From Chiloscyllium plagiosum (Eukaryota): DNA of 62,000 bases. Where the stretch lies: contig NC_057755.1 in the NCBI RefSeq assembly GCF_004010195.1, positions 9,339,306-9,401,305 on the forward strand, written 5' to 3'. The notes below the pieces were generated by a model, which worked only from the letters and a program-made list of their open reading frames with translations, ran no database searches and was not told where the DNA came from. Both the position numbers and the translations under genes were made by a program. Within the stretch, counting starts at the first letter, position 1; each line of letters opens with the position of its first letter. Positions 16,276 to 62,000 of this stretch are shown piece after piece.

Positions 16276-17189
16276 TCACTTTTCCTTTCGATTAACCAAT
16301 ATCAGAAGATATGACCAAGGAAATGTCAACACTTCCTTCAACTCATGTCTGAATTTACTTTGTGTCGCTGCATAAATGCACACATTTGTGCATGAACTCA
16401 AATACATTAGCATGTAGCCAGCTTCAGTGGCAATGTAAGCTGGAGCTGCAAAATCGCCTCGATAATGTGAGATGTTTGTTATCCTAGTAGATAAAAAGCT
16501 GACAGCTGCTGTCAGCCAAAGAAGAATAAAACTGCTTGATATTGTGAAGAGTAGAATTATGGATTTCCTTCGACTCTCCACCTCTTCGTCTCTTTGACAC
16601 TCAATATTCCGACCTCTAATTGCCCTGCGAATTTTATTGGCGAATAAAATACGTCTAATGGTCAAACAATTGAATAAGAGCATCAAAGAAAATGGAATCC
16701 AAGGAACGAAAATACTGTGCAACCAGGAAAATGCAACACCTAGTGGTGAAGTGAAAAAAATCAGCTTGGTGCGACAACCCCACTGTAAATTATCAATGAT
16801 TTTCTCAGGTTCATATGCAAACAAAAACGGTATGCTCTCTAGGCATACCAAAGCAGTGATACTCATTAAAACTGCAGCCGCTGTCTTCACTGTGCAATAC
16901 TTTGTTTTCAGCCTCTCACAACATATAGCCACATATCTATCAAATGTGAACATTACAGTGAACCACACTGCCATTAACAAGCTGATTGAGTTCATGTATT
17001 TAAATAACATACAAACTCCAGTGTAGGAGAAGAAGGAATGCGTAAAGTGATAACCGAATACGTGATGTACAGTTACATTGAAGATCAAGATCATAAGAGC
17101 TGCTATTGCCATGGCCACCATGTAGGTGCAAGTACATTCAGACAGGCCGCAGTTTCTTCTGGAAAGAATTACCATTGTCATCAAGTTCG
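16276..17189 (-). CDS. Exon 2 of an intact GPR139-like class A GPCR (locus A; end of TM1 to C-terminus)
   Basis: Open frame with hydrophobic helices, NLMTMVILSRRNCGLS, WFTVMFTFDRYVAIC (DRY), ECL2 WGC and YLSSCTNVCIY. Acceptor TTCATTTGCAG|CG at 17190/17189 (phase 1); stop at 16276-16278. Confidence 0.92.
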
Positions 17190-17964
17190 CTGCAAATGAA
17201 ATGAACAATCGTTTTAAAGTGAGATCTCTTACAAAACCAAAATAATCTGAAAAAAATGATGATGTTAAATTGAAAGGTTTTGCCGCTGACACTTGTGTGC
17301 ATTGATATTTTTAATATCATATATGTCAAAGTGTTGGAACTTGCATTATAGAATAACAAAGCACTGAATACTCAAAACAGAGGGACTGAACTTTGACTTG
17401 TTTCCAGAATCGTCTAGTTAAGTGATTTAAACGATTACATGGATTAAAATGTTCAAGAGCAGTTGTTTTCTGAGTACATTGTGAACTGGAGACTGATGAT
17501 CTAATCATGAAGTCACAATGCAATCCAATTAATATACACAATGGCTATTACACTTTATTCAATTGGTAACTAAATGGACTTTTAAAATACCCAGTGCCAG
17601 CTGTCATGAGTAACTGAGTTCAGGTTCTGGTTTTAAATATCAAAGAAATGATTTGGCAAACTCTTAGAACAGTAATCATATGATAGCCACGCTAAAGAAT
17701 AAGCTGCACTATCTAAGACCTATGACTTTACTCGATCCTCTTCAAGTCTCACCACATCTCTCAGCCAAAGGTAGAAAGGCACATTAAAGCAGTTAAGCAA
17801 TAACTTATGAGGACAAATAGATATGATGGTCCACAGGATCACAGGCACATGGACCTCTATCCGGGTTTGTTTCTGATGACACTGGTGCTTGCAGCTCGGC
17901 TCGAAGAAATATAAATTTGAGTCCAAAACTGACGTTATATTCTCTGAGCTTTTAACATATCAAT

Positions 17965-18170
17965 CTTAAGAAGGCAAGTCGGAAGTGTTAGAAGCTGGTA
18001 AAATGCCTACATTTAAAAGATATCTGGATTGGTATATGAACAGGAAGCGTTTACTGGGATAGGGAACAATGCGTGCAAATGGGGAACGCTTAGTTTTGGA
18101 GATCTGGTCGGCATGGACGAGTTGGGATAGAAGGATTTTTTTCTGGTTTGTAATTCTCCATGATTGTCTA
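17965..18170 (+). mobile_element. CR1 3'-end fragment
   Basis: ACATTTAAAAGATATCTGGAT..TATATGAACAGGAAG...GGTCGGCATGGACGAGTTGG matches the 3' UTR of the CR1 at 12700-12900. Confidence 0.7.
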
Positions 18171-21100
18171 ACCATTAACCTCTGGCCTGACGATTTCCAC
18201 CACAGAGCCCAATAACAAGATGAAACTCTCATCTCTCCCTGCCAGACTGACCGTCTTTACACGTGACCACAGTTTTCATTCAACTTCTGCTTTCAGCTTG
18301 AGCGCACGTTTCATCTGCAGTCGATACATCAAAAGAACACTTCCCATAAAAATATATCATGCAAGTAACGTTCATATTTGGCCTCAACAACTAATAGAAC
18401 CTACTTTTTTTTTCTCTTCTCCTTTCAAATAAACGAATTGCTACTCAAATCGCAAAGGACACCTTTCAACTCTCATCTTGCAGTTCGTACCTTCAAACCA
18501 AAATAATAAAAACGAATAAAACGAGATAATGAAAAAATCAGCAAGGTTTCTAACAACAGTTTCTCACATAACAGTTGAAAGCTCTGAAATGTATTCATTC
18601 TGAAACGATAATAATTGTGAGATGACAAATGCTGAGCATTTACCTTCAGGATTTGTGCATTCGCACCCGTCATCAATTGTGCCTGAGAAGGATGGTGATC
18701 ACCTTCTTAATAAACATCTACCAGAATATATGAAAGAGAGCTTGTTTACTAACCACAACATGTCTGCATAAGGTCATTGCAAGTTTGAGGAACAAGACCT
18801 CATTTTCTGACCAAATTCTGTCCAAGCTACAAAAGAACATTGCATTTTGCTGAGGCACCTTACCGCATTCACGTCTCAACACTGATTTCAACAGATTCAG
18901 AGCATATCCTTTGTTTCTAATTTCTTCAATAGACATTAAGTATTCCACATCGACACAAAGATATGTGCAATTTGTGAAGTGTTTGTTTGTGAACTTCAAA
19001 ACTCTCATTCTCATGCCGATATTGCCATAATCTTGTCAGGACCATAGAATTCCGGTACTGTGGGACGTTATTCAGCCCATCATGTTGACACCGTTTCATT
19101 AGATGAGCCTCATTTTCCACTATAGCAGATAACCTTGTACCTTTCCTCACTCCCCACAAACTCCAACTCCAAAATGTATTTATTGCCATCGTTAAGGCCT
19201 CCATTGGAATTGCCTCCAAAATAATTTCAAGGAAAAGAAATGCTATGAGAACTCAGACACAAATGTTTTGTTCCTCATTTCATCCTTGCTTATTTCACAG
19301 GTCACTGTTAATCTCTGCACTCTTGTTCTTGTTTCGTTTAACAATGGGAACAATTTCTTCCCATCTACATTTTGAAGACCATTCCCGATTTTGAAAAGAA
19401 CTATCTGCTCACTAAAAACATTTTGCTCACTCATATTTTCACCAAGAAGAACAGTCTTAGCTTATTCAATCGTTTGTCATCACTGAAATTCCTCATCCCA
19501 GGCATCATTTCTGTCAATTGTTTCTTCGGTTTTCCCTCACGCCTTCACATGTTTCCCATTATGTGGAAAACATAACTGTGTACAATGTTAAACAAATGTT
19601 TTGCACAAGTTCGAACTTGAGTCATTAGTGATGCACTTTGTGTTCTTTTCATGAAGGTAGGAATTCTGCATACTTTATTTTTCATTGCTGAGAAGTCTTA
19701 TCACTTTCAATAATCTGTGCACATGTGCACCCAGATCGCTCTGCTCCTGCAATCTCTTTTGAGTTTAATGTCTCTCAAGACCTGGATAAATTGGCGTCTC
19801 TCCTTTCGGACCATTAGTACCAAAAAGCAGGAGACATTCAAATGGGACTCCCATTGCAGAATTCGTTCGCGCCAGCCATCAATTTATGTCCTTTGTTTGT
19901 GTCTTCAAACTTTTGAAAAAATTTTACATGTACTCACATGGTAACGGAGGAGACAATTACCAGACTGGGGTCATTGCGGTGAACCAGCTCTCAGATTGGA
20001 AGGCAGTGGTAGGGAGGAGAGTCCCTTTGTGGAAACCTTCACGAGGAATGAAATCTCAGACTCCAGAACTGCTAGGGTGTGGGGAGCGGTGTGTGGTTAA
20101 TTCCCGCCGTAGAGCAGTGTCATGGGGAATTGACTCTCCGAAAGGAGACTGAATCTGGGAGATGTTTCCCAAAATGCAGGGCTTTCACGGGGAGTCGAGT
20201 CACAGACTGCAGGACTGTCGCGGGGAACAGAGTGTTGGAGTTGGGACCCGTGCGGGGAAATGACTCTCGGACTGGAAGATTGTCATGGTGATCCGAATTC
20301 CGGAGTGGCAACTGGACTGAGATGCGACCTTTCGACTGGAGACAGAGTGTGAAGGTGACTACCTGACTGGACACTGGAGCCGGGAGACGTGTCCCTGTCA
20401 GGAAGTTGTCGTGGAAAGACACCAGGAAAGAAGAGCGCAGTGGGGATGTAATTCATTGACTGGAGACTGCAGCGGGGACATGAGTGCTAAATTGTAGGTC
20501 TCTCATGCAGAGGTGAGTCTCAGACTGGAATCGGTCATGATAAGGCGAGGTTCACAGTGGACTGGAGGAGAGCCCTCAAAGTTTGAAGACCAGCCTGGTC
20601 TGGAGACTTGTTCCAGTGCGGTCGGAAGCTTAAATATATCGAACATTGGGGTGTAATTCTGTTAATTGAGAACAATTTCTTTTTATGTTTGCTATTGCTT
20701 CGTGTCCTGGACATTTCTTTTGCTTTTTTTTTCAATTTTATTACATATCTTTACATGTCTATGCGCATGGAAACGAAGATATGCTGCAAATGGTGGCATT
20801 CCAAACGTTTCATTCAAGAGCACATGATAATAAAGAACATTCAAAACAGAGACACACTTGTGAGGCTGTACAATTCTCTAGTCAGGCCATATTTGGAAGA
20901 TTGTGAGCAGTTTGTTTCTGCAAGTCATAACAGCTGTTTTGGGCTTGGCCGGATCAACAGAAGGTATACAAAAATAATCCTGGGGATGAAGGTCTATCAA
21001 CTTTCCTTGTCATTTTCAAACTGTAAATCATCTAGTTATAATCGGCTATGCACTTAACATTCTTATTTGATCTTAGGTAACTTATGATACTCACTTCATC

Positions 21101-21810
21101 TGCTTCACTGGGTCACAAACCTAGTCCTTTTTGTTCTAAAAGCTGTTCCTTGGCTCAAATATACTCTGTAAGCATGTCTTCCAGTTATACTTTTTTTTAA
21201 GGGAGCTTGCTTATTGAGAACTGTTGCACATATTCAGCATATTGAAGTCGTCTTTGGATAGACTGAGTTCTGACAGGGTTATGTTTTATTCTGTTCTTCG
21301 TGTTTCATTGTGTAATTTTGTGAATAATTTTTGTCAACCTCACTAACTTAATCGAGGTTTAGTTACGGTACACTTACCGAAACAAATTGCGAAGTTATGG
21401 TCTGGGCTCCCTGTTTAAGATTATTTTGAGTGGCCTGGCCTTTTCCATAACAGACTGGGGCCTCCTTATGGAATTTTAAACAGGGAGTGGTAGGGGCCAG
21501 TGTCTTTATTTCGGGCGTTGTTTTGATTGTGTAGACCAAGCTTCGGATAGTAATGGCTCTTTAAGTCGCCAAAAGTTTTCTGGATGTGTATCCCGTGCCT
21601 TTGGAAGTTTTGCAAAAAATGAATAGGACAAAGCTGCAGGAATTAGCAGAGAAGCTGAAATTTGAACGAGCTGCTTTTTTGAGCAAAGGAGAGTTAATTG
21701 CAGCAACTCAGCATTTAAGCTTGTTGGAGAAACCATCCAGAATCTATAGAGATGGCAAGACTTAAATTGAAAATTAAGCAACTTGTGTTAGAGGCGATAC
21801 ATAACGCAAG

Positions 21811-22739
21811 TGTTCTGAAGAGTTGAGTGTATCTTTAGTAGGGTTAACAATCAGCATTACTGCCGGACATAAAAACCAAGTGTTCTCAATAACACAACAA
21901 TCTATGTAACAATAGGTCTAATACTCGAGTAGTTCATTGCCTGGAGACAAAAACAACTTCTAATTTGGCTAATCAACTTGACTTATACTTCTAAAAATGC
22001 CAATTTCCAATCAAGTTTCAAATTAGTATATTGAAAATATTTAAAAAAAATCAATGACACAATCCGATGCTCTGGGGTATAAGGTCAAAAGGAGATTGAA
22101 CCATGGAGAGGAGAAGTGCCAAGTCCTAGCATGTAACAGACCGCTTGAGAAATAAACTCTTTCAAGTACGTTTTTTTTCAATCAGCCTAAATTATACCCC
22201 CCAAAATACCAATTTCTAATCATATCTGAAATGACTATATTGAAAATCTTAAAAGGCACTGACGTGATCCAGTGCTCTGGGGTATAATGTTTGGAAAAAA
22301 ATGAACAGTTGAGAGAGAACTGCCATGTCCGAGCATGTAGTATACTGCTTGAAAAATATATCTCTCTGTCAAGTATTTTTTTTCAATCAGTAACCTGTAA
22401 ATCAGAAATTCTGAACAAGGAGAAAATAAGACACAGGAAAATCCGAAGACAAGAACTTACAGCTACCTGATTTTGAGATAAGAAGTGTTGTTTTATAAGT
22501 CTTAACTGGGAATTTTATCGGACTAGTGCGACAGAAGGGAAGGTAAGAAATAGAATAAAGAAATAAATTGCAAATGCTGGTTACTTAATTATTCTCTGTT
22601 ATACTTCAAGAAGTAAAGTTGTTAATTTTTACTTTGCATAGTTCTTGGTTACACAAAGATTTACAGGTTAAAGCACGGCATAAATATATTGATTTTGCTG
22701 GTTTAAATTAAGCAGGAGAATTTACCCCGTGTCGTAATA
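21811..22739 (+). mobile_element. Solo LTR (second family) inserted into gag of the Gmr1-type element
   Basis: Starts TGTTCTGAAGA and ends GTCGTAATA; homologous to the inverted copy at 26952-27649; gag reading resumes on both sides; near-TSD CAAG/AAAG. Confidence 0.75.
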
Positions 22740-23232
22740 AAAGGGCCAGCCGAAATGAAACCGTTTCAGTTACAACTAAAGTCAGAAGAGAGGGAAACGA
22801 GAGACCAGCAGAAGAGAGGGGAAAAAGAGAGAGCAGAGAAAGAAAAAGAGCGAGCTTTTTTCTTCAAAAACTGACGATCAAAAATGAAAGTCAGCTTAAA
22901 AGACTGGCGACCAAGGCTGAGGGTGGTCTTAGTGAAGAATACAGTGAGGATGAGCAAGACCTGGCAGTCAGAAGCCTTGTGCGAAACTGTTTAAGTATGT
23001 TCAAGCATTGCTTCAATTTGAGGAGATGGATATGGAGGCTTTTTTCATCTCATTTGAAAGGTGGATGAACATATATAGTGACGAGTTCTACTGTGTGTTC
23101 TGTTGATCCAAACGAAACTTGTAGGTAGGGATTGTGAGGTATTCACATCACTTTCAGAGGAGGTAACTGGGGAGAATGAGAAGGTGAAAAATGCTTCTCC
23201 CAGAAGCATTTAGGCAACACGTCACGAATCTA

Positions 23233-23732
23233 NNNNNNNNNNNNNNNNNNNNNNNNNNNNNNNNNNNNNNNNNNNNNNNNNNNNNNNNNNNNNNNNNNNN
23301 NNNNNNNNNNNNNNNNNNNNNNNNNNNNNNNNNNNNNNNNNNNNNNNNNNNNNNNNNNNNNNNNNNNNNNNNNNNNNNNNNNNNNNNNNNNNNNNNNNNN
23401 NNNNNNNNNNNNNNNNNNNNNNNNNNNNNNNNNNNNNNNNNNNNNNNNNNNNNNNNNNNNNNNNNNNNNNNNNNNNNNNNNNNNNNNNNNNNNNNNNNNN
23501 NNNNNNNNNNNNNNNNNNNNNNNNNNNNNNNNNNNNNNNNNNNNNNNNNNNNNNNNNNNNNNNNNNNNNNNNNNNNNNNNNNNNNNNNNNNNNNNNNNNN
23601 NNNNNNNNNNNNNNNNNNNNNNNNNNNNNNNNNNNNNNNNNNNNNNNNNNNNNNNNNNNNNNNNNNNNNNNNNNNNNNNNNNNNNNNNNNNNNNNNNNNN
23701 NNNNNNNNNNNNNNNNNNNNNNNNNNNNNNNN
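23233..23732. other. Assembly gap (500 N)
   Basis: Run of exactly 500 N, probably a fixed-size scaffold join. Confidence 0.99.
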
Positions 23733-26032
23733 TGTTCCCCGTAATATGTTCCCCTGTTTCTGTCTGCAAAAACTCTCAGCTCTGGAATGCAATTTGTACT
23801 TGCAAATTATATAGCTGATTCACTGGTAGGTGTGCTGCCTACCCTAGTTGAGAAGCGAGTGGCGACGCAGGCAACTGAAGACATGAAAAAAGTTTTTTTA
23901 TGTCCAGGAATTTTCACTGATTGTGTGATCACAACATCACAGAGACACAAGCTGAAGCAAGAGTGATCAAAGAGCAGAGATAAGGAAACTGATGTAGTGT
24001 TATCCGATACACTCTTTCATCAGACAAGTGGAACTGAAAAAAAGCTGATTGACTTAAAATAGAAAGATGAGAACTGAGAACAATATATCAAAAGGCATTT
24101 ACATCGAAGGAAACTGAATGCATTCCTCTGTGTTATTACTTAAAAATTGATGTCTTAATGAGGAAATGGAGACCATCACACTTCCAAGCAGATCAGAGGT
24201 GGGCGGAGATTCATCAAATTGTTTTGCCAGTAGGATAAAGAGAGAATTCCAGAGCAACCCCATTATGCAATATCACAGCAAAAAGGTTTGTGGAAGAATT
24301 ACGTTTTTTAACTAGATAAGGGGTTCCAGCAGAGATCCAGTCCGATCAGGAATCAAACTTCACATTGAACATATTCAAAGAAGTTATGGTTAACTTGGGA
24401 GTAAAGCAATTCAAGTCAACTGCCTCGCGCACAGAATCGTAGGGAGCACTAGAGAGATGGAATCCCACACTAAAGACCATGTTGCGGTCTTATGGTCAGG
24501 ATTATCTGGATGATTGTGATAATGGAGTTGCATTTGTACATTTCACGAAAAGCGATGCACCGAATGAGTCGATCTAATTCAGTACACTTTAATTAACTTT
24601 TGGGCATGAAGTAAGAGGAGCATTAAAACTCATTAAGGAGAAATTAATTAGTCAGAATTCAGATACACCCATTTGGATTATGTGTCAAATTTTAGAAAAC
24701 GATTAAATAGAGCTGAAGAGTTGACTATTTAAAAGTATTTAAAAGTATTGCACCATGCAATGGAACAGGAAGCAGATAAGAAATCTCAAATAAGGTATTG
24801 TTGTTACTTCCAGTAGTAGGTGTACTTTTAAAAGCCAGCTTTCGTGGATCTTATGAAATCGAGTGGAAATTGAATGAGGTGAACTATTTGATAAGGATTC
24901 CAGGCAGGAAGAAATCTCGCAGAATGTGACATGAGAATGTGCTCAAAATGTATTTTTATAGAGAAGGAAAGCAAGAGGAGAAGGTGGGAATGATTCAACC
25001 ACAGATGGAAGAGTTCAGAGTCCAAGTTCAGGAGATTCTGAGTTGGATATGTTCAAATCAAATTGGCCAATGAGGAAGTTGTCAAAAAGTTCGATATATT
25101 ATTGAGTTGCCTTCCACAATAAAATCGAAGTGACCTGATAGCGATACGACTATTACATAGGGAGATTTGTGGAAATAAACAGAAGTACTAACCTAATTGT
25201 GCATGACATAGAAATAGGAAATGCTGTTCCGATTAAGCAGCGTCCTTATAGGCTTAACCCTCTAAAGTTGGCACGCGTTCAGAAGGAGATAGAGCGCATG
25301 TTCCACGATGGCATAATCAAAGTGAGTTACAATGACTGGAGGTCACCCATGGCCATGGTACCAAAGCAAATTGGTACCCACTCGTTACGTGTGGACTATC
25401 GCAAAGTCAACGTCATTGCAAAGACTGATGTATATCCAATTCCACGGTTGGAGGACTGTGTCAAATCGTGGGATAATCAACTTACATTTTGATGTTGGAC
25501 ATGCTCAGAGGCTACTGGCAAGTACCTCTGTCAGAGAGAGCAAAGAAGAGCAAAGGTCAGAGAGAGCAAACGCCAAATGGGCTATGTCAGTTCAAAGTCG
25601 TGCCATTTAATATGAAAAACGCTCCAGCCATATTTCAGAGTCAGATTAGTAAAGTCATTGCCTGCTTACCCAACTGTGTGCTGTGTATTAATGACTTGGT
25701 GATATTTAGTCACTCATGGAAGGAACATTTACAGCATTTATCCGATGTGCTCGATCAACTTCAGAAGGCAGGATTGGTGGCAGATCTAGCTAAAAATGAA
25801 TTTTTCAATGCCCATGTCGCCTTCCTGGGCCATGTTATCAGACATGGACAAATGGCCACACTGGATGCAAAAATAAAATTAATTGAGGAATTTTCCACAC
25901 CGTTGACAAAAAATAGGCAGCACTACTGTTCCTGAGATTGACTGGATTTTACAGATAATTTGTATCGAACTTCAGCAGTTTGGCTCCTCCATTCACCGAA
26001 TTGTTATAAAAGGACAAGAAGCTTCAGTGGAC

Positions 26033-26202
26033 TTCAACAGTGAGATTTGTGGAAACTCTTTCTTTCCTTCCAACTTCAACCTGTTACCATGTGGTCCATT
26101 TGTACTAGTTTTTAAAGTTCAACAGTGAGATTTGTGGAAACTGTTTCTTTCCTTCTAACTTCAACCTGTTAGCATGTGGTCCATTTATACCAGTTTTTAA
26201 AA
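26033..26202 (+). repeat. 85-bp tandem duplication at the RT/3' LTR deletion junction
   Basis: TTCAACAGTGAGATTTGTGGAAACT... starts at both 26033 and 26118. Confidence 0.9.
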
Positions 26203-26951
26203 CTTATTGGCACTGTTGTGTGTATTCGGAGCAGCATTGTTAAGTCCAGTTTGGATAGACTGACTTCTGTTAAGGTTCCTTATTCCATTCTTCGTGTTTG
26301 TTTGCGTAATTTTGTGATTTTTTTGTCAATTTTAAAACTGTAGTCAACCTCACTAGCTTAATCCGGCTAACTTTTACTGGACACTTACGAAAAAATTGCA
26401 AATTTATGGTCTGTGCTGCCTACTTTACAATGCTTTGAGTCGTCTTGCCTCGTCCATAACAACTGGGCAAAACTCATGCTCAGACCTAATGAATAATTGG
26501 TGAGGCAAGACCATTACATCTTTTTTTCCCTCTATGTTCACTATCAACGCTAATTTTCATATTAGCTTTCTGAATCATAGTCTCAAATCATCCTCGCAAA
26601 TTCAAGATTTTTGAACATATCTCTTCGAGTCCCTTTGCTTTACATCCCAGAAAGACCATCTGATTTTGATTCCACGTCAATTCCAAGCTATTTAACTCAA
26701 AGCATATCTGTTAACCTATACCAGCAGAATATCTATTGATTTGGTGTGTGGTATTCTCAAATTCAACCTGGCAGTGAAGAAAGTTAAAAAAAAGAAAATG
26801 ATTAATTTGAAACAAAGACAGCCATGCTTTAAGAATGCTTTGTCATGGAATGCCTACGAAGTGCAAGTTGGGCGGATGTATCACTGCAGCGGGAATAGGA
26901 TACTCTGAGAGACTGATTAATAACTCAGATTTATCCTTGGCCACTTGCTAT

Positions 26952-27649
26952 TTTTACGACATGGAGTAAGCCCTCCTGCTTAATTCAGACCAGCAACACA
27001 GAAAATATTTCTCCCATTCAGTAATCTGTGAAAATTCGAGAGTCCAAGAACTATTAAAAGTAAAAATTAAAAACTTTTTTCTTAAAGTGTGACAGAGAAT
27101 AATAAACTAACAACTATTTACAACTCCTTCCTCGAGTATATCATTTACCTTCCCTTCTATAATACTAGTCTGATAAAGCTCCGCAATTAAGATTTTCCAA
27201 AAATTCACGTTTTCAAAACCAACTAGCTGTCAAGTCTTCTATTAGGATTCCTTTGTCTTCTTTTCTTCTTCTTTGCGATTATGATTCACAGGTCACGGAT
27301 CGAAGAGGGTACCTTTAAGAGATTGGTGGATGCCATTGGCTTGGCAGTTCTTCTTCCAACTATTCAATTTCCCCCAGTCTTGCACTCACAAAGCATCGTT
27401 TGTGCCATTGGTTTTTAAGATTGTCAATACACTAAATTCATACATGATTTGGAGTATAGTAATTTTAGGGCTATAATTTAAACTGATTGGTCTACTTCAA
27501 AACTGTTTTGTCATTCCCAGACAACCCAGCTAATCCACCTTCTGACCAAGTGTTACATTGTTACCTTATTCAGAACATTGTTGCTGTCAGGTATTCTGCG
27601 GGCTTTTTAAATTTTCTTAAAGTTATAGTGCACCCACATCTTCATAACA
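26952..27649 (-). mobile_element. Solo LTR (same family as 21811-22739) nested in an old CR1 fragment
   Basis: Minus strand begins TGTTATGAAGATG; the other end matches 22500-22739. The CR1 peptide DIESKSK...QLEYCTQ continues after 27650; near-TSD CTAT/CTCT. Confidence 0.75.
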
Positions 27650-28842
27650 CTCTAGACATAGAGTCCAAGAGCAAACCGTTTCTGTTCAACTTCTGGAAGG
27701 AACTAGTTCTCTCTCAGCTGGAATATTGTACTCAGTTAGAGGAACCATATTCTCAGAAGGATATGTAGCTACTGAACAGATTAGAACACAGAACGTAAGA
27801 ATTTGGAAGAAGAGGAGGCCATTCAGTGCCACAAGCCAGCTCTGCCATGCATAAAACGATGGCTGATCTCATTCTGGCCTGCACTCCAGTTTCCTGGACG
27901 ATACTTAACACTTGAATTCACTTCTTATGAAAGATTTGCATTAAAGGTTACAAATTCTGTCTGAATCTGTAACCTTTCATTTCAGACTACCCCACACACG
28001 GAGACATCGTCTCAACATCTTCTTCATAAATTCCTGGGAGCAGCATGCATCCATCAGTAAGAGCACCTCTTATTCCATCAAACGCCATAGAATGTAAGCT
28101 AAAATCCTCACTCTTTCTTATTAAGGCACATGCAATTTCTCTGGAAATTAATCTCTTGATATTCCATTGAACAATGTCCAGTGTCCTCACTCTGTAAGTA
28201 AGGGGGAAAAAGCAGTAAGGAATAGTCCAGGTTTGTTATGTTTGTTCTCACTAACATCGTGCACAGTTGCAACAAATCATCCCAATTTTTATACTCTATT
28301 CCTTGAGCAAAACATGCCGATATTCAATTTGCCTTCTTTATTACCTGCTATACCTGCAATCTCCTTCACGAAAATTCAGCCATGATGTCACGTCCCTCGA
28401 CATGAAAGCAAAATTACGACATAGATTCAAACACTCAAGAAAGAAGAAAGTGCTTGATAACTGCAGTGGCCAGAACAAATTGGCACAGTCGAAAAATACT
28501 GCACAGGATTGAAATGAGGAGGCATTTCTTTGCCCAGAGTGTGGTGAAGGTTTGAAATTCTTTGTAACTGAAAGTAGTTAATGGCAAAACGTTGAGTGTT
28601 TGAAAAAATGCAATTCAGATGGTTCTTAATACTTAGCGGATCAATGGTTGTGAAGAGAAAGTGGAAGCAGGATAGTAATTTGCACGACCAGCCTGAATAT
28701 GTTGAATATTGCTGAAATATTCATGGGTTGAATGGCTCCTCACGTTCGTCTTTTGCAACTTTCTATGGAATACATACCTCTTCAGTGACTGTATTGTCAG
28801 AATTTGTTGACTGTGTGAAATATTCGGATATTCTTGTCTTAC

Positions 28843-28912
28843 CAAGAATGCCAATGGCTGCAAGGATCGGGTAGTATATTATCTTCATCTGTAGAATCAC
28901 TGGCTGTGCCAT
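28843..28912 (-). CDS. Exon 1 of GPCR locus A (MAQPVILQMKIIYYPILAAIGIL plus 1 nt)
   Basis: 70-nt exon with strong Kozak context (AGAATGG), N-terminus/TM1 motif IYYPILAAIG, and donor G|GTAAG at 28843/28842. Phase 1 fits the exon 2 acceptor, giving 984 nt / 327 aa. Confidence 0.88.
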
Positions 28913-28964: not shown

Positions 28965-28995
28965 AACTGAGGACTGGGAATATTCTCTATTTATA
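28965..28995 (-). promoter_or_regulatory. Candidate core promoter of GPCR A: TATA box and Inr
   Basis: TATAAATA at 28995-28988 and TCAGTT at 28970-28965 (+1 near 28968), followed by a 56-nt ATG-free leader. Confidence 0.55.
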
Positions 28996-31436: not shown

Positions 31437-32315
31437 TCATCTCCTTTTCATATTTAATAACTTTACAACGAACGCACAGGATTTCAGAAGATTCAAAAGC
31501 TCTCTTCTGAATTTCTTCTGGACCACTACATAAATGCATGTGTTTGAATAGGATATCAAATGCGTTAGCGTGGCTTCAGTTTGGTATGCCCTAGACTTTG
31601 GACTTGCAATATCTCCTTGGTCGTAAGAGGGATCTGTCAGTCTGGTAATTACAAGGTATATCACAGCTGACATCCATGACAGAAAGAAACTTCCCAACAC
31701 TACACACAGTAAAGCAAGTTTTTTGTTTGATGCATTAAAGTAAGATCACGTTGATTGCCAATTCTGTGACTTCGAAGTACTCTGCGTGCTTTTTTTTGCC
31801 ATTATATGTCTGATTATGAATGAATTAATCAAGGAAATTTGAATGAAAGGATACCAAACTAAGTAGATGTCGTAAAACTAGATGTACACTACTCCTGCAA
31901 TTTAGGGAAGGAATATTATCATTTCACCCCGTTAATAAGTTGGCCACATTCATATGGAAGGAAAATGGCGATATTCTTAATAAGCATGATGGCATAGATC
32001 ACGGTTATAATTTCCATGATACAGTCCCTTGATTGAAATTTCGGTCAGCGATAACCACAAAGCCATCAAAAGTGAAGGCGACTGTGAACCAAATTGATAA
32101 ATTGAACATAACAATAGCCAGGTAGACAGTCAACTTGCAAATATGCTAATGAGACCAAAACGACACTGGAAAGTGATACACAAGAATACGATTAACTATG
32201 AAAATACTGATTATAACCTGCAGCTCTGCTGTTGCCATAGCAAGCATGTATTTACAGATGCACTTCGAGAGTCCACATTTTCCACGCACGGGAATTAAAA
32301 TCATCATCATGGTCG
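31437..32315 (-). pseudogene. GPR139-like GPCR exon-2 pseudogene (locus B)
   Basis: RGKCGLSKCICKYMLAMATAEL, WFTVAFTFDGF and LISYSNTCIYVVVQKKFRREL; stop at 32146, frameshifts, acceptor reads CAA instead of CAG. Confidence 0.9.
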
Positions 32316-33228
32316 TTGTAAAAAAGACACGGAAGAGGAATATTGACTCAAACATTTTTTTTCCTTTCCAGAATAGAAACATAGAAATGAAACATTAATT
32401 GTAACTCAAGTGACTATACAGGATTAAAAACAAAAATGTGGAAGCTCCTGACTGCCTGCCATAGTAATTAGTAAGCGCAATCTGCCTCAAATCACAAACA
32501 TATTGATGAGCATAACTTCGTTTTGTTGTCACGAAAGCGTTTGTGGAAATCATAGAGGCAAAGAGGATTACAGCAGTGTAAAGGAACCTTTCGCATATCA
32601 ATTCTTCACCAGTCAAGAACAACTAAGTAAGTATTCTAATCCCAATTTTCAGCACGTGCACCACAAACCTGGTATGTACTGGCATTTTAAAGCTAATCTG
32701 AATTTTTTTAAGAGTATGAGGGGTTCAGACCCTTACACTCTCAGAAGTATTGACTTCCAGATTTCCATCACTATTTTAATGAAAATACTTTTTCATTTCA
32801 TTTCCTCCAACACTTCAGCCCTTAACTTACATCGAGGTCACATGGTAATTAATACTTCTAATAATGGAAACAATTTCTCCTGGCCTACTTGGTTATGCCT
32901 CTCATAAGTGTACACTTTTGATGCATGTCCCCATCTAATCTCTTCTGCTGTAACGATCTGACTAATCTCTTTTCATGAGCGACTCTGACGAGCCCAGGCA
33001 TCATTCTTGCAAATCTCTTTGAATCCTCTCCATTGCAATTATATTCCTCTAATTATGCACACTCTGGAACGACATACCACTGAAAATTTCCAATGTTAGT
33101 TTGCCCATTTCATTCTCGGATTTAGCTTAGCGACAGGAAAGTTCTGTCAAAAATATCCTTCCACAATGAAGACTGAATTTCTCTTTTTGCTATTCTAATG
33201 ACCATTCAATAAGAAATGACCCAAAATT

Positions 33229-44308: not shown

Positions 44309-45213
44309 TCATCATCCTTTCATACCTAATAACTTTAAAATGTACGTTCAGGATGATTTGACAATATATACCAGGTCTTCTCTGCATTTCATCTGGGTCC
44401 CTGCACAAGTGCACGTTTTTGAACAGGGTCTCAAATACTTCAGCATGCCTCCAGCTTCGGCTGCAATATCTGTTGGATTTGTAATGTATCTTTGGTATTC
44501 ATTGATGCTTGTGATTCTGGTCATTGCAGAGGTTATCTCATTTGTCATCACAGTAGAATGAAACGTCCCGATACACCAAAGAGCAAAAACGATAGATTTC
44601 ATTACAATCTTTATCTCTGAATCATAAAGATTGTCAATTGCGTCGATCTGGATTGCTCTGCGTGTTTTCCTGTTCACGAGTAAATGTCTGTTTATCAATC
44701 TATTAATGAAGGCAATCAATATAAAAGGAAAACAGACACTCTAAAACCAGATGTACACCACTTCTGCAATTGAAGAAAGTAATGCCACACTTAGTTGGAA
44801 GTTCAATTTCACCTTGTTTAATAACTGTACAATTTCAGATGTAATGACAAATGGGGATATCCTTAATGAGCATGAAGTTACAGCTCACGATTATAACTGT
44901 GCGTGCACCTCGTATGGTACAAAACATTGTCTTAAACTTTGGACAGTAGATGATGACAATACAATCAAAAGTGAAGGGGACTGTGAATCAGACAAATGGA
45001 TTGAGCACAAGAAAAACCATGTTGCAATCAAATTTGTAATTTTGCTTATGAGACAGGAAAATAATGGAAAGTGATACGTAAAAATGTTATTAACTATTAT
45101 ATTATTGATTATAATCAGTAGGTCTGTTGTTGCCGTGGCAAGTATAAAGATAGAGGAGCACTTCAACAGGCCACAGTTTCTCTGCACAAGAATGACAATT
45201 GTCTTCAAGTTCG
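44309..45213 (-). pseudogene. GPR139-like GPCR exon-2 pseudogene (locus C)
   Basis: ANLKTIVILVQRNCGLLKCSSIFILATATTDLL; V*FTVPFTFDCIV (W to stop, DRY lost); IAAEAGGMLKYLRPCSKTC; frameshifts; acceptor reads GG. Confidence 0.9.
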
Positions 45214-46679
45214 CCCTAAGCACTACACAGGATTGGAACATTGACTCAATATTCGTTTTACTTGAATAAGAATACAGAAATCAGAATTCAATTGTAAACC
45301 ATGGGGCTCAACAAGCGGAAAAACCAAAATGTGGAATTTCCTGACTGCCTATAATGGCTTAGTTATTGGTAACTGAAATCTCGTCCAAATGTCAGACACA
45401 TTGACGAGTTGAGTTTCAGTTTGGGGACATGACAGTGTCAGTGTAATTGATAAGTTTAAAGAGGATTACATTAGGAAAGAAGTACCTGAAGTACATCAAT
45501 TGATGGACAAATTTAAAAATCTGTGCTGCAGTCCTATTGGAATATTTCGTTCTTCACAACTTTACAAAGCTGTATTGGTCCCGTTGGTGTGCAGAGAACA
45601 AGAAATAATTAGATACCAGATATGAAAAAAATTAGTCACCATGTTAATTGGAAGCAAATTGCATCATTATTTGTTGGGCGAAGTGATTTAGGAGACATGA
45701 AGTCAATATTTTGAGACCGTGAGACCATGGGTGAAAGTTCCATTATCAGGTTAGGTTCACGTTTAGCAAATTGTGTTAAATTTGATGCTGTACGTATCCC
45801 GTTGAGAGGACGAAGGCTAACCCTGACTTTGACTCTGATCCCAATCCTGTTTTATTTTAAGACATAAAAATGAAAGTCTATTAAATTAATTTGAAGAGAT
45901 GGTTGTTGAGTAAGAAATCAAAGTAATCTTTATAAAATGAAGAAGTAGGAGAAGGAGTTGATCGGTCAGGGCCTTCACCCTGTTCTGCTATCCATTACAA
46001 TCATAACTGCTGTCATCTTGGCCTCAATCCCGTCTTCCTGCAAATTCTCCTTAGCCCTTTGCCCCATTACTAATAGGATCGTGTCCATTTCCAGATTATG
46101 CTTATTCAATTTGGTCCCGATTTCCACCACACTCTGGGGGCATTGATTTTCATACATTTACAATCCTTTGAGATAAGTAACTTTTTCACGTCTATGCTGA
46201 ACCTCATCTTAAAAGGATGACTACTCGACCCAGTCGAGCCTATATGTGGAAACATCCTCTCCATAACTACTCATTCAATCCCCTTCAGCAATCCCCTTTG
46301 CATAACTCAGAATGACGGTGACTGCAGAAAGATTATTACTTCGGTGAGACAAGGACATTGTGGATAAATGCTTGACACCTGTGTAGTTGGACAATCTGCC
46401 AATGCATCGCGGAAATCTGTGAAACATTATCGCTTACCCAGAAGAGTGTTGGCACCCCGAGGGAATTCATGCAAATTCACAACAAACAATTAAACAGAAC
46501 TCAACAGGGAAGCCAACGATTGCAAGAATTGGATGATATATCTCCTGTGTCAGTGGAATGATCATTTGTTCCATCCTTCTGAGGTTATGTGTGTCGTGAC
46601 CGACTCAGCCAAGTGCACAAGGCCGAAGACCTACATGTATTTGATGGATTTGGGTGGTAGTGGGGGTAGGTTGGAGTTG

Positions 46680-49391: not shown

Positions 49392-50240
49392 TCATCTTCC
49401 TTTCGTATTTAACAACATAACAACGCCAACACAGGATACTTTGAGAATTTTAATTATCTTTTCTCTGAATTTCTTCTTTGTCACCATGCAAATGCGCGTG
49501 TTTGAACAGGAACTCAAAAACCTCAGCACAGCTCCAGCTTCATCTGCATAGAGGCTAGATTTCCAAAGTCTCTTCGGGAATACCAGAGGTTTATGAATCT
49601 GGTTGTCAGATTGGTCGTTGCAGTTCGATTCTTCACCTCGGGATCACATTTATTGTCAATTATGTGACTGCAATGTCCTCTCGGGGTTTTACCTTTTATT
49701 ATTATATGTTTTATTTTCAATGCATTAAATAAAGCAATTAAAATGAAAGGAAAACAAACTAAACAGATGCTTTAAAAACATGTACAATATTCCTGAAATT
49801 GAGGGAAAGTGTTTCACACTTGCCTGGCAATTCTATTTCATTTGTTAGTAATGCGTTCATGTTTGCATGGAATGATAATGGAGATATCCTTAATAAGCAG
49901 GAAGGTGCAGCTCATACCAGCAACCACGTCTGCAAATCGCACCGTGCTATAACTTGTTTTATTCTTTGGACAGCCGATGAAGACAAAACAAAGAAAAGTT
50001 AATGTGATAGTGAGCCAGTCTGAAAAAATCGAGCACAAGACACGACATCTAGAAGTTAAACTTTAAAATGTGCGTATGGGACAGAAACGTCGACAGAATA
50101 TGACACGTAAAAATTCTACAAACTATGCCATTGTTAATTCTGACGAGCAGGTCTGCTGCTACCACAGCAAGCATATAGGTAGAGATGGAGTTCGAGAGGC
50201 CAAACTTTCCGAGCAAAACATTCAGTCTTCATCATGTTCG
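49392..50240 (-). pseudogene. GPR139-like GPCR exon-2 pseudogene (locus D), TM6 region deleted
   Basis: YMLAVVAADLL, DWLTITLT, DPEVKNRT joined directly to ECL3, LRFLSSCSNTRICMVTKKKFRE; frameshifts; acceptor CAA. Confidence 0.88.
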
Positions 50241-50374
50241 TTGGGAACAAGACACAGGAGAGAAATATTGACTGAATTTTTTTTTTCTCTCTCGAATAAC
50301 AACACTGGAATGAAATTTGAATTGTTAACCAAGTGCATTTGTCAGGCTTAATTTGATCTGTCGTGGCAGAGCAA

Positions 50375-52000
50375 TCAGAACATGCATTACAGTGATGAAC
50401 AGGCTCTTCGGCACTTGATGTTGCGCCAACCTGAATAAAAAATCTGAAACTCATCTCTCCTCCACTGTTCCATGTTCATACATATGTTCATCCAGTAAGA
50501 ATTTAAATACCCTGAAGGTTGGCGTGTCTACTACTGGTGCAGGCAGTACCTTTGCGACCATATTACTTACTGAGTAAATTGACTACCACCCCTCAATTTA
50601 AAGCTACGTCCCCTTGACCAAGCCATCTCTGCCTCAGGGAAAGCACTCGCACTGACCCTCTTATCTAAAACTCTGATTATCTTATGTGTCTCAACTATGG
50701 CACCTCTCAACCTTCCTCTCAGTAACAAAAACAGCCTCAAGTCCCTCAGCCCCTCCTATATCATGCAATTTCCTCATAAATGTCATCTGAACAAGTTCCA
50801 AAGCTTCTGCATCCTTCGTATCATGTGGTGAGCAGAACTGCATGCAACACTCCAAGTGGAGCTGCACCAGAGTTTTGTACAGTCACAACGTGACCTCGTG
50901 CATCCAAAACTCAAACTATCTATTAATAATAGCTAACATACTGTATACCTTCTTAACAACCCTATCAACCTTGGTGTCAACTTTCAGGCGTCTATGTGCA
51001 CAGACACCGACATTTCTCTGCTCATTTACACGACGAAGAACCTTACCATTAGCTCAATACTCTTTATTCCTGTTGCTCCAGATAAAACGAATTCCCTCAC
51101 GCTTTTATGCATCACACTCCATTTGCCATCTCTCATCCCAGCTCTGCAGTTTATCCATCACCCTCTGTAACCTGCAACATCCTTCACCGCTATCCAGAAA
51201 TCCATCACCCTTGGGGTCATCCGCAAATTTACTAACCCATCCTTCTACTCCATCATCGAGTTCATTTGTAAAACAAATGCCAATCAGCAGTCGACCGAAA
51301 ACAGATCCTTGTGTTACACCTGTAGTAACTGAACTCCAGGATGAATATTTCCCATCAAACACCGCTCTGTCTTCTTGCATCTAACGAATATCTGATCCAA
51401 ATTGGTAAATAACCATCAATCTCATGCCTCCATATTTTGTGCACTCTCCTACCGTGGGGAAACTTATCAAACGCCTTAGCGAAATCCATATACACTACAC
51501 CAACCACGAAATCCTTATGCATCTGCTTGGGCACTATCTGCTTGGCACAGTGGTTAGCACTGCTGACACACATTGCCAGGGACCCAGGATTGATTCCTGC
51601 CTCGGGCGACTTCTGTGTACAATTTGCACATTCTCCCTGTGTCTGCGTGGGCTTCCTCCCAAGATGCAAAAATATGCAAGCCATGTGAATTGACCATGAT
51701 AAGTTGCCTGCACTGCTAGGTACATTAGGCAGAGGAAATGTTAGGCAGGGGACATTTACATTTTCCATAATTACTAACAACTCTTCCTTCTGAACCTCAA
51801 TCCCGTCCAATCTACTCACCAGTTTCTCAATATTCTCTTCGACAAGAACTTTTTTTTTTACTTGCGTGAATACTGACGAAAAATATTCATTTCACGCTTC
51901 CCCATCTTCTCTGACTCCATGTAGAACTTCACACTACTATCTTTGATTGGGCCTAATCTCTCTCTTGTCATTATTTTAGTCCTGATACACATATACATAG
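50375..52000 (-). mobile_element. CR1 fragment with inserted V-SINE (about 51543-51750, +); copy 1 of a local triplication
   Basis: VTTGVTQGSV, SKFADDPK and YMDFAKAFDKFPH; 50321-50876 identical to 52001-52556. Confidence 0.88.
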
Positions 52001-52054
52001 ATTGTTAACCAAGTGCATTTGTCAGGCTTAATTTGATCTGTCGTGGCAGAGCAA

Positions 52055-53225
52055 TCAGAACATGCATTACAGTGATGAACAGGCTCTTCGGCACTTGATG
52101 TTGCGCCAACCTGAATAAAAAATCTGAAACTCATCTCTCCTCCACTGTTCCATGTTCATACATATGTTCATCCAGTAAGAATTTAAATACCCTGAAGGTT
52201 GGCGTGTCTACTACTGGTGCAGGCAGTACCTTTGCGACCATATTACTTACTGAGTAAATTGACTACCACCCCTCAATTTAAAGCTACGTCCCCTTGACCA
52301 AGCCATCTCTGCCTCAGGGAAAGCACTCGCACTGACCCTCTTATCTAAAACTCTGATTATCTTATGTGTCTCAACTATGGCACCTCTCAACCTTCCTCTC
52401 AGTAACAAAAACAGCCTCAAGTCCCTCAGCCCCTCCTATATCATGCAATTTCCTCATAAATGTCATCTGAACAAGTTCCAAAGCTTCTGCATCCTTCGTA
52501 TCATGTGGTGAGCAGAACTGCATGCAACACTCCAAGTGGAGCTGCACCAGAGTTTTCTACAGTCACAGCGTGACCTCGTGCATCCAAAACTCAAACTATC
52601 TATTAAGATTAGCTAACATACTGTATACCTTATTAACAACCCTATCAACCTTGGTGTCAACTTTCAGGCATCTATGTGTACAGACACCGACATTTCTCTG
52701 CTCATTTACACGACGAAGAACCTTACCATTAGCTCAATACTCTTTATTCCTGTTGCTCCAGATAAAATGAATTACCTCACGCTTTTATGCATCACACTCC
52801 ATTTGCCATCTCTCATCCCAGCTCTGCAGTTTATCCATGCCCCTCTGTAACCTGAAGCATCCTTCAGCACTATCCAGAACACCATCAACCTTAGTGTCAT
52901 CCGCACACTTACTAACCCATCCTTCTACGCCATCGTCTCGTTCATTTATAGAAAAAAATGCCAAACAATAATGGCCTCAAAACAGATCCTTCCGGTACTC
53001 CTGTAGTAACTGAACTCCAGGATGAACATTTCCCATCAAACACCGCTCTGTCTTTTTGCAGCTAACCAATATCTGATCTAAATTGGTAAATGACCATCAA
53101 TCTCATGCGTCCGTATAGTGTGCACTATCCTACCGTGGGGAAACTTATCTAACACCTCAGTGAAATCCATACACACTACATCAACCATTATATCCTCATC
53201 CACCTACTTGGTCAACATCACAAAT
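52055..53225 (-). mobile_element. CR1 fragment, copy 2 of the triplication
   Basis: 1680-bp offset repeat of copy 1. Confidence 0.88.
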
Positions 53226-53230
53226 AACAA

Positions 53231-53535
53231 TGGGCGTCACGGTGGCTCAGTGGTTAGCACTGCTGCCTCACATTGCCAGGGACCCGGGATTGTTTTCTGC
53301 CTTGGGAACTGTCTGTGTAGAGTTTGCACATTCTCCCTGTGTCTGCGTGGGTTTCCTCCCACAATTCAAAAATGTGCAGGTCAGGTGAATTGGCCATGTC
53401 AAGTTGCCCGCACTGCTCAGTACATTAGATAGGGGCAAATTTAGGGTAGAGGAACGGGTTTGATTGGGTTACCCTTCAGTGGGTTTCTTTTGGACTTGTT
53501 GGGTGGAAGTGCTTGTTTTCATACCTTCGCGACCC
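53231..53535 (+). mobile_element. HE1-like V-SINE
   Basis: GGTGGCTCAGTGGTTAGCACTGCTGCCTCAC head and V-domain. Confidence 0.85.
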
Positions 53536-53609
53536 TACTCATCGAATCTAACACAATATGTTTTGTGCGGCAAGACCAACGATTCACAAAACCGTGTTAT
53601 CTGTTATGA

Positions 53610-54152
53610 ATATATGTTTTGTTTTCAATGCATTAAATAAGGTAATTAAAATGAAAGGAACCCTAACTAAACAGATGCTGTAAAACTACACGTACAATAT
53701 TTCTGAAATTGAGGAAACAAATTATTACACTTGTCTGGCAGTTCCATTTCATCTGTTATTAATGTGTTCATGTTTGGATGGAATGATAATAGTGATATCC
53801 TTAATAAGCATGAACGTGCAGCTTATACTTGTAACCATGCCTGCAAATCGCTCCGTACTATAACTTGTTTTAATCTTTGGACAGCAGATGAAGACAAAAC
53901 AAACAAAAGCGAATGTGACAGTGAGCCAGTCTGAAAAATGGAGCAAAAGACAAGCCATCAAGAAATGAAACTTAAAAATGTGTGTATGGGACACAAACGT
54001 AAACAGAATGTGATACATAGGAATTCTATAAACTATGACATTAGTAATTATGACCAGCAGGTCTGCTTCTGCCACAGCAAGCATATAGGTAGAAATGCAG
54101 TTCGAGAGGTCAAACTATCCGAGCAAAAGATTCACAATCTTCATCATGTTCA
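53610..54152 (-). pseudogene. GPR139-like GPCR pseudogene, TM1-TM5 only (locus E; close paralogue of D)
   Basis: MLAVAEADLLVIITNVIVYRI, DWLTVTFAF and ICCPKIKTSYST; nucleotide match to 49706-50320; acceptor CAA; no TM6/TM7. Confidence 0.87.
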
Positions 54153-54305
54153 TTGTAAGCAAGACACATGAGAAGAATATTGACTCAATATTTTTTCTCT
54201 CTCGAATAACAACACTGAAATGAAATTTCAATTGTAAACCAAGTTCATTTGCCTGGGGAGAAAAAAGGAATTTCCTGACTGTCTGTCATAGCATAACAAT
54301 TAGTA

Positions 54306-58887: not shown

Positions 58888-59146
58888 ATTCTGGGGATTC
58901 TACAACTGCGCACTGTACAAAGTTTCCAAACGTAGTTTGTCTATTTCAGTCGCACGTTTACTTTAGTGACATTAAAAATCCACCAACAGTTTTTGTTTCA
59001 CAATACTGATGTGGTCTGTTTGCCCATTTGAAAGAACATTGAATTTAAAAAGTGCCAGCATTATCTCCCTGATTGAGCTTTGACTTCATTATTCTGTGCC
59101 TGTGATTGAGATTACACCAAAAAGGAGATATGATGTGGGAGTGCCG

Positions 59147-59246
59147 GTTTGAACAGGAACTCAAAAACCTCAGCATGTCTCCGGCTTCATCTGCAAGAGA
59201 GGCTGGATTTCCAAAGACTCCTCGATAATAATTCAGATTTACGAAT
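59147..59246 (-). pseudogene. Isolated ECL3-TM7 fragment of a GPR139-like GPCR (locus F)
   Basis: Reads FVNLNYYRGVFGNPASLADEAGDMLRFLSSCSN, matching loci D and G. Confidence 0.8.
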
Positions 59247-60907: not shown

Positions 60908-61527
60908 CAAATGATCCCATCACTTTCAAAGTTGATTTTTGTCCTTTTTTATGAAGGAAGCTTCAGACAGACATGCGAAGTATCTACTCAAAACTAATTA
61001 AAGAAATAGCTCGTGAGGGTTTGATGCATTTTAGTTGGAGCTATGCAAGCAACGTGAATGGTAGGGTCAATCTCCCACAGAATCAAGATTAATACTGATG
61101 TTGGATTCTTCAAGCTGGATGGGGAAGCTGGATGTTCTTTCTCTGTATGTCACAGCTAACTACTGGAGTTCTTTTCCTGCTGCTAAAATTACACGTGAGA
61201 CAATCCTTTTCAATGAATTTGCCTTTGCTAAGGGTGTGTTGATGGGATGCTTTGATATTGGAATAGTTGATTAGTCGACACACATACAATCCTAAATGTT
61301 TTCTGTTTTTATTCAGAACATCCTTATAGAATCACAATTAAGCCAATTCTATTCCATTAGTTTTATTTTGTCTGTATTTCAATTGTAGTCCAACATGGAA
61401 GTGTTTTTTCTATAGTGAGAAATTTAATGAAATTACATCTGAAAAACACTTGCTTTTAAAATAAAAAAAGTTAGGGAAGAACTATTGTCTTAATGTAGTT
61501 TGAGTGGGGTTGTTCCAGTTCATAATA
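60908..61527 (+). mobile_element. Decayed Gypsy-type LTR
   Basis: PPT-like TAAGCAGGGAGG upstream; paralogous to 48490-49156. Confidence 0.65.
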
Positions 61528-61760
61528 TATGAAATGTTTTTCTAAAATGAAGAAATATCATGACCCATCAGTAATGACTAGACAAATGTGAAAATATGGA
61601 AATGAACAGATATCACGTTATTGATGAAGGCAAGAAAGACTGATGAACACTATTTTTTTCTCTCCATTTATGATCTTTATGCAGACATGATAAGAAAACT
61701 TCGGTATCATTGAATTCACGAGTGATCTTGACATTTTTTTGGGCCAATAAACATTCAAAT

Positions 61761-62000
61761 TCACCTTCCTTTCATTTTTAAGCATTTTACAGTGAATGAA
61801 CAGGATAATTTGAGTATATACATCAGCTCTTTTCTGAATTTCCTCTGGGTTACTGCGTAAATACATGTGTTTGAACAGGAACTCAAATACCTCAGCATGG
61901 CTCCAGTTTCGACTGCAATATATCCTGGATTTCCAGGGTCTCCTCGGTAATAATTGGGATTTGTTATTCTGGTCATTACAAGGTTTATCACAGTTGTCAT
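61761..62000 (-). CDS. 3' end (TM6 end, ECL3, TM7, helix 8) of another GPR139-like GPCR (locus G), continuing beyond the window
   Basis: Uninterrupted TRITNPNYYRGDPGNPGYIAVETGAMLRYLSSCSNTCIYAVTQRKFRKEL...*; upstream intactness unknown. Confidence 0.8.
   Translation of the reverse strand: MTTVINLVMTRITNPNYYRGDPGNPGYIAVETGAMLRYLSSCSNTCIYAVTQRKFRKELMYILKLSCSFTVKCLKMKGR

Follow-up and report, generated by a model that had tools for sequence, protein, structure and literature searches.

What does a row of receptor genes and pseudogenes, most of them broken, represent in the genome of Chiloscyllium plagiosum? The row lies in a 62,000-nt stretch of contig NC_057755.1 (assembly GCF_004010195.1, positions 9,339,306 to 9,401,305; the whole stretch is referred to below as the window) and consists of loci for G-protein-coupled receptors (GPCRs) of class A, which a first-pass annotation of the letters had read as a GPR139-like receptor repertoire. 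The window appears to be the edge of a tandem cluster from an orphan lineage that expanded in cartilaginous fishes and has GPR139/GPR142 and the non-mammalian GPR210-type orphans as relatives. The identity and anatomy of the family can be stated with high confidence. As a whole, the reading of this expanded lineage as a chemosensory repertoire comes from sequence, and we put it just short of an even chance.

All receptor loci are carried by the minus strand. Seven same-strand loci had been described, namely an intact gene (A), four pseudogenes (B to E), a fragment (F) and a locus open at the window edge (G). A scan of the whole window with a profile built from 119 homologues recovered every one of them and raised the count to eight by adding locus H (8404–8075), which lies outside the range annotated before. 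Locus H is a pseudogene remnant of the transmembrane helices (TM) 6 and 7 and helix 8, with two stops and one frameshift, and is placed with B–G in the tree. The profile scores of the loci range from 20 to 464 bits, and outside the eight loci and two exon-1 pieces no segment of the window exceeded 5 bits.

The size of the family was estimated from a search with exon 2 of locus A, in which 1162 of 1793 candidates (clusters at 90% identity) passed; the following statements rest on the best 120 of the 1162, of which 119 are non-self. All 119 carry shark, ray or skate names at 53–76% identity, the nearest being proteins of the whale shark (76%) and zebra shark (73%). The name “probable/putative GPR139” is attached to 112 of them. 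The other seven carry names such as allatostatin-A, vasopressin V2 or GPR15-like, which were rejected since these proteins fall in the same clade. The 119 clusters comprise 283 sequences, including 100 under Heptranchias, 72 under Pristiophorus and 54 under Heterodontus representatives, and may include isoforms or haplotype duplicates. The expected large family with species-specific bursts was borne out when three of the 90% clusters were examined: all members (12/12, 13/13 and 10/10) came from one species each, and the first cluster holds twelve distinct proteins, all of 323 aa. At the 50% identity level, 98 clusters were found at E ≤ 1e-30. Fourteen of their representatives with at least 35% identity were checked; 13 belong to cartilaginous fishes, including the chimaera Callorhinchus, and one is unnamed. 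Coelacanth, salamander, teleost, bichir, crocodile and amphioxus proteins follow at 24–33% identity. The expansion is cartilaginous-fish-wide; counting only the top matches, a single species can have as many as about 100 annotated proteins. Tandem clusters with pseudogenes and lineage-specific bursts, as in chemosensory repertoires, are present.

The name GPR139 points to the right branch, since no solved structure matches the family better than human GPR139. It was the only solved structure at E ≤ 1e-20 for the shark-only profile (83.9 bits), scored 126.8 bits under a mixed profile, where the runner-up receptor had 100 bits, and was also the best match of coelacanth protein P0219 and of an amphioxus profile. 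Locus A alone matched a human GPR139 chimera at 23.3 bits (E 3e-4), below orexin receptors, and the coelacanth protein labelled GPR139 matched human GPR139 at 70 bits. The shark-only profile scored human GPR139 at 83.9 bits versus 260 for salamander, 229 for coelacanth and 126–157 for amphioxus proteins, which had been chosen as matches of A, a choice that favours their scores over GPR139. A maximum-likelihood tree of 36 sequences, none of them a true GPR139 or GPR142, contained a cartilaginous-fish clade (ultrafast bootstrap, UFBoot, 90) with a salamander sister (UFBoot 88), outside both coelacanth groups. Amphioxus queries aimed at true GPR139 and GPR142 brought up amphioxus proteins alone (11 and 12). 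Relative to four invertebrate outgroups, the family fell with chordate orphans, apart from invertebrate peptide receptors (UFBoot 100).

The binding pocket separates the family from GPR139 itself. According to the accessible text of PMC5430874, the Trp/Phe pocket is formed by F3.33, H5.43, W6.48, N7.38/39 and R6.51. At these positions locus A has S, S, W, Y and A. The family set was assembled from 275 candidates, 198 of which passed a coverage filter and 178 of which were taken as family, about 46 unnamed sequences being assigned by the tree. Over these 178 sequences, W6.48 is present in 98% and F3.33 in 8%, and H5.43, N7.39 and R6.51 are outside the six commonest residues, leaving W6.48 as the only one of the five pocket residues kept. 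Position 6.51 is occupied by many residues instead of Arg (A 33%, T 12%, V 8%, S 8%, N 7%, Y 7%). A basic residue at 6.51 and an aromatic one at 3.33 are retained in the amphioxus and bony-vertebrate relatives but not in the shark family. The missing Trp/Phe pocket and the higher scores of the salamander and coelacanth orphans indicate that the shark genes are not copies of GPR139. The GPR139-like identity proposed earlier holds insofar as GPR139 is related and the nearest characterised receptor; the genes probably form a sister lineage, with orphans of fishes, amphibians and amphioxus as closer kin. Because the pocket is lost, aromatic amino acids, the ligands suggested by the name, are not to be assumed. 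Human GPR139 and GPR142, receptors for L-Trp/L-Phe, share W6.48 and N7.49/Y7.53 with the shark family and differ in having F3.33, H5.43, N7.39, R6.51 and P6.50, all of which the family has lost. The family has a phase-1 intron just before N1.50, and GPR139 presumably has the same. Unlike GPR139, which has Asp at 3.25, the shark proteins have a cysteine pair between C3.25 and extracellular loop (ECL) 2, and their genes number from tens to about 100 copies per genome.

Non-mammalian orphans have been placed in this neighbourhood before. Rinne et al. 2019 (PMC6504862) name GPR210A/B beside GPR139/142, together with a third subtype, and the accessible main text mentions no shark; an “Orphan 139-like” row is found in the available part of PMC5207463. 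Coelacanth P0219/P0270 and P0252 are probably two of the orphans of PMC6504862, as judged from its accessible portion, because their UniProt accessions are as far apart as the Ensembl identifiers in that paper (3600). The coelacanth identifiers of the GPR210 orphans are ENSLACP00000014196, ...15589 and ...19189, and none of the proteins compared was recognised as GPR210A. The shark profile scored P0219/P0270 at 211–229 bits and P0252 at 119 bits. The GPR210-type receptors resemble the shark family as non-mammalian orphans beside GPR139/142, but they occur in few copies and keep R/K/H at 6.51 and Y/F at 3.33; moreover, the shark clade sits in neither coelacanth group but with the salamander lineage. 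The salamander proteins P0221, P0271 and P0274 represent a conserved receptor, to which the shark expansion is more closely related than to any other from bony vertebrates. It is possibly a single-copy survivor, useful for tracing the ancestral ligand.

The distribution of variation over the receptor resembles that of a repertoire, as had been proposed: it peaks at the pocket sites and is lowest on the G-protein face. Entropy over the 178 sequences was 2.80 bits at 22 pocket sites, 2.13 bits at 31 outer lipid-facing sites (p = 8e-5) and 0.72 bits at 22 that face the G protein. Among 39 same-species pairs, independent of one another, the pocket differed in 182 of 856 cells (21.3%) and the lipid-facing class in 191 of 1171 (16.3%; p = 0.005). 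The variable extracellular loops described in the first-pass annotation were found in part. ECL2 (16.6% differences in the same pairs) and ECL3 (16.2%) are modestly above the overall value of 13.4%, ECL1 (11.0%) is below it, and the pocket-lining helix positions are the most variable. Pocket variation exceeded lipid-facing variation in all four sequence sets compared, significantly in two.

These patterns suggest the following scheme. Copies would be made by unequal crossing-over in DNA rich in long and short interspersed elements (LINEs and SINEs). Surviving copies keep the signalling face while the chemistry of the pocket presumably drifts. The set would then be a repertoire of small-ligand sensors on one G-protein pathway. 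That pathway would be Gq/11, which GPR139 uses, or Go, which shark olfactory neurons use. A ligand-diversified repertoire is quite probable on this pattern. The ligands would most likely be foreign peptides or amino-acid derivatives, as the ancestry outlined in the accessible parts of PMC8514136 and PMC12208981 suggests, and the likely site would be an epithelium with a sensory or barrier role, in the nose, mouth, skin or gut. That the site is chemosensory is an open bet, with the chances somewhat against it. A bolder version is tentative: an unrecognised cartilaginous-fish chemoreceptor family from the FMRFamide/MIP/GPR139 branch, larger in some species than the known olfactory repertoire, expressed one or a few per sensory cell and hidden under the name “probable GPR139”.

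The established chemoreceptor families offer analogies. The OR, TAAR, V1R/ORA, V2R/OlfC and T2R families share with the shark receptors tandem clusters, pseudogenes, lineage bursts, a short N-terminus and a variable pocket, but not sequence membership: a Pfam search of A (7tm_1, 66.7 bits) and P0005 returned only 7tm_1 and no OR, TAAR, V1R, V2R or T2R match. The shark family differs further in its two coding exons, and its expression in sensory cells is a prediction. None of 83 family models with a short N-terminus contains a glycosylation sequon within residues 1 to 14. Clusters bearing the Pfam domain Srw are among the Atlas neighbours of the family. The nematode srw genes are a chemoreceptor expansion from the group of FMRFamide, MIP and proctolin receptors, from which the shark family differs as an independent expansion at about 25% identity, and we know of no vertebrate peptide matching the ligands of that group. 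Mammalian MRGPRs and formyl-peptide receptors are likewise born and lost fast and sense a broad range of peptide and cationic ligands; they differ in belonging to another class A branch and are absent among the top solved-structure matches of the shark family. The invertebrate FMRFamide, MIP (sex peptide) and proctolin receptors are assigned to the same superfamily in the accessible text of PMC8514136 and PMC12208981.

The only intact gene of the window, locus A, encodes 324 aa in two exons. Exon 2 (16276–17189, 914 nt) extends from the second half of TM1 to the stop codon in an open frame with an intact AG acceptor. The coding part of exon 1 (28843–28912, 70 nt, 23 codons and one base, with a GT donor; 42.9 bits with the exon-1 profile) lies 11.65 kb upstream, beyond a phase-1 intron of 11,653 nt (17190–28842). 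The two exons are predicted to be joined, and the exon 1 product is near-identical to the N-terminus of zebra shark protein P0004; in the databases the locus is represented by P0001, a protein of 301 aa that lacks exon 1. A TATA-like box (28988–28995), putatively functional, is located 83 nt upstream of the ATG. The 3′ untranslated region (UTR; 15671–16275) contains AATAAA at 15689–15684 and extends to 15671, where a contig of sequencing run X1 ends. Runs X1 and X2 are taken to be RNA because of their exon-shaped depth, a GT-AG joint and the contig end 13 nt behind AATAAA; the depth was 56.8 on exon 2 and the UTR versus mostly 3–18 in the intron. Run X1 differs from the window at 3 of 914 coding nucleotides versus 15 of 605 in the UTR (p = 3e-4), and three of the four coding differences in X1 and X2 are synonymous, so the frame of A seems to be under constraint. 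The single-cell run X5 (about 2/100 sampled) gave 10 reads on the stretch, 9 of them partial and mostly on a SINE, with a trace in the intron of A and none on exon 2; run X6 (about 6/100 sampled) gave none on the stretch.

The remaining loci have a different history. Exon 2 copies are present in pseudogenes B (31437–32319; about one stop and five frameshifts) and C (44315–45214; about three stops and four frameshifts). Pseudogene D (49392–50243; about two stops and four frameshifts) has a deletion of about 20 codons, and E (53596–54153; about two stops and three frameshifts) retains only the 5′ two thirds; all these counts vary with the alignment used. Locus F (59147–59246) is an ECL3–TM7 fragment of about 100 nt, 83% identical to D and G, and G (61761–62000) comprises the last 79 codons, stop-free, up to the window edge. 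A decayed exon 1 (46503–46574; 26.1 bits, with TT in place of the GT donor) lies upstream of C, and the exon-1 profile found none for B, D or E in the window. The acceptor AG is gone in all of B–E, with a common AG>AA change in B, D and E; D and E also share a 1-nt deletion. At R3.50, Cys is present in C, D and E; since this is a CpG site, the changes were possibly independent. dN/dS among B–G was 0.70–1.33 (9 pairs with at least 75 codons), a comparison limited to B–G since functional paralogues were available as proteins only. The common lesions and these ratios indicate that much of the local duplication took place after or along with loss of function.

Flanks of 700 nt were compared, with 30 shuffles per pair. 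The claim that B, C, D and E have homologous intron-side flanks was upheld for all six pairs (scores 50–625, null maxima 26–33). That of homologous 3′ flanks among B, C, D and G stood for four of six pairs (B–C 98, D–G 170, C–G 59, B–G 39; nulls 28–29), B–D and C–D not being above the null. None of nine pairs of A with any copy exceeded it. The loci B–H constitute a separate, mostly dead clade, copied with its flanks as 1–2.4 kb segments; D and E belong to a 2.4-kb segment pair at 86% identity. The retained intron-side flanks rule out a retrogene origin. A tandem duplication of the intron-side flank of D (50321–53445; 1.68 kb, 92% identity over 1.4 kb) has a first part identical at 437 of 437 positions and is either a very recent duplication or an assembly artefact. 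In a tree of 205 sequences, A grouped with one whale-shark and one zebra-shark protein (support 0.974), and B, C, D, E, G and H formed a separate clade (0.998), a grouping which long branches may inflate and with which the common flanks agree. A has orthologues in the whale shark and zebra shark and belongs to another subfamily than B–H. An origin of A and B–G in one recent burst is ruled out by a nucleotide identity of about 53%, saturated dS, the absence of common flanks and the separate clades. The window is mostly a graveyard, a modest example with one intact gene among dead copies. The high-turnover birth-and-death cluster described earlier stands as regards the tandem array and its dead copies; turnover is weaker than claimed, given the orthologues of A in two carpet sharks and the near-neutral B–G.

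Several observations weigh against a chemosensory repertoire. The site classes used for variation follow generic position numbering and were compared within this one receptor family. Pocket and lipid-facing entropy did not differ significantly among the 119 closest sequences (1.80 vs 1.58, p = 0.22), nor did differences in the three clusters at ≥90% identity (15/66 vs 12/72, p = 0.40), where ECL3 (12/39) and ECL2 (17/72) were as variable as the pocket or more so. The dN/dS ratios describe only the window loci B–G. In A, Ala replaces the near-invariant Asp 2.50 at codon 54 (about 17100); Ala is also present in four of five carpet-shark relatives and Pro in the fifth, and the sodium site may be lost in this subclade. 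The joins of exon 2 of A that were listed for the two runs are irregular. In run X1, exon 2 is joined 5′ to a 74-nt cryptic exon (18717–18644; GT-AG joint 17189/18644), which behind exon 1 would put an in-frame stop. In run X2, one contig links the exon 2 acceptor at 17189 to a cryptic donor inside pseudogene B (32218), the acceptor lying 15 kb downstream, and thus bypasses exon 1 of A; the loose end of the contig matches 29 of 30 letters at 32221–32250. The longest product that such joins could yield has 301 aa and lacks most of TM1. The joins listed for X1 and X2 cover a stretch excluding exon 1, and 24 loose-end rows lie beyond those listed. The start of the X1 contig at 17191 hints that the normal join is rare in this run, and read-through splicing from B to A along the array may explain the 301-aa database model. 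Finally, the accessible text of PMC10116579 describes V2Rs as dominating catshark olfactory neurons, which leaves no obvious gap in the nose.

Some of these points suit mostly neutral amplification in unstable, repeat-rich DNA, in which copy number and variety would reflect drift around a few conserved functional genes. Of the eight window loci, six are dead or fragmentary and G runs off the edge, B–G show near-neutral dN/dS, the shared lesions mean that dead copies were still being duplicated, and the transcripts observed for A look non-productive. This explanation is nevertheless improbable, since the intracellular and activation sites are near-invariant over the 178 sequences, from chimaera to sharks, and there are hundreds of intact family models. 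Chimaeras and sharks span more than 400 million years. An equally poor prospect is a set of subfunctionalised receptors for endogenous peptides or metabolites in brain, gut or endocrine tissue, with copy number as a by-product. Among characterised receptors the nearest kin respond to Trp/Phe and peptides in brain and gut, according to PMC12208981, and the orthologues of A in two carpet sharks keep 16 and 18 of the 22 pocket sites; against this, dozens of pocket variants per genome match no known endogenous ligand family, and the ancestral R6.51 gives way to many residues.

Immune or barrier surveillance is harder to set aside, albeit still rather unlikely. The receptors would be carried by leukocytes, mast-like cells or sensory neurons of the skin and would respond to peptides of microbes or of host defence, as MRGPRs and formyl-peptide receptors do in mammals. 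Tandem bursts and a variable pocket fit this role equally well, the bursts are strongly species-specific, and cartilaginous fishes lack MAS1 and its kin, as reported in PMC8455134, so another family could fill the role. The ancestry, however, lies with neuropeptide and amino-acid receptors and not with chemokine or formyl-peptide receptors, as far as the available parts of PMC8514136 and PMC12208981 go. A chemosensory repertoire, on the balance of these points, is the reading preferred here.

The surrounding DNA of the window is of a LINE- and SINE-rich vertebrate type. A long LINE copy (1598–4950, plus strand) contains an SGNH-esterase-like ORF1 remnant, an endonuclease and a reverse transcriptase, and many shorter copies of it are scattered across the window. 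Decayed reverse-transcriptase open reading frames are located at 25142–25932, in the intron of A, and at 6454–6648 (both plus strand); from their motifs, we take them to be of LTR-retrotransposon type. The former is flanked by inverted repeats (22509–22690 and 27002–27182). The intron of A also includes a 500-N assembly gap (about 23236–23735). A tandem duplication of 134 nt (36138–36405) and a duplication of 85 nt (26033–26201) were found as well.

No description of the shark expansion was found in the literature searched, subscription journals and some supplements being out of reach, and among the six matches listed “GPR210” occurs as a receptor only in PMC6504862. Across 24 supplementary files of PMC8455134, a set without its possibly relevant gene-family rate table, there was one match, a GPR142 orthogroup label. 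The proteins are already in public annotation under a misleading name, and their parent orphan group has been listed before.

The accessible text of PMC8455134 reports a paucity of GPCRs in cartilaginous fishes, and that of PMC10116579 a small shark olfactory repertoire, with very few OR, TAAR and V1R genes and 34 V2Rs in the catshark. Such a picture of sharks with few GPCRs and olfactory receptors is surprising, given how large their olfactory organs are. If the family is sensory, the approximately 100 annotated proteins among the top matches of one species would exceed the 34 V2Rs of the catshark and would change this picture; if it is immune, it would represent a novel receptor system of innate or barrier defence. 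In either case, a branch represented by a single conserved gene in mammals would here have been made into a repertoire.

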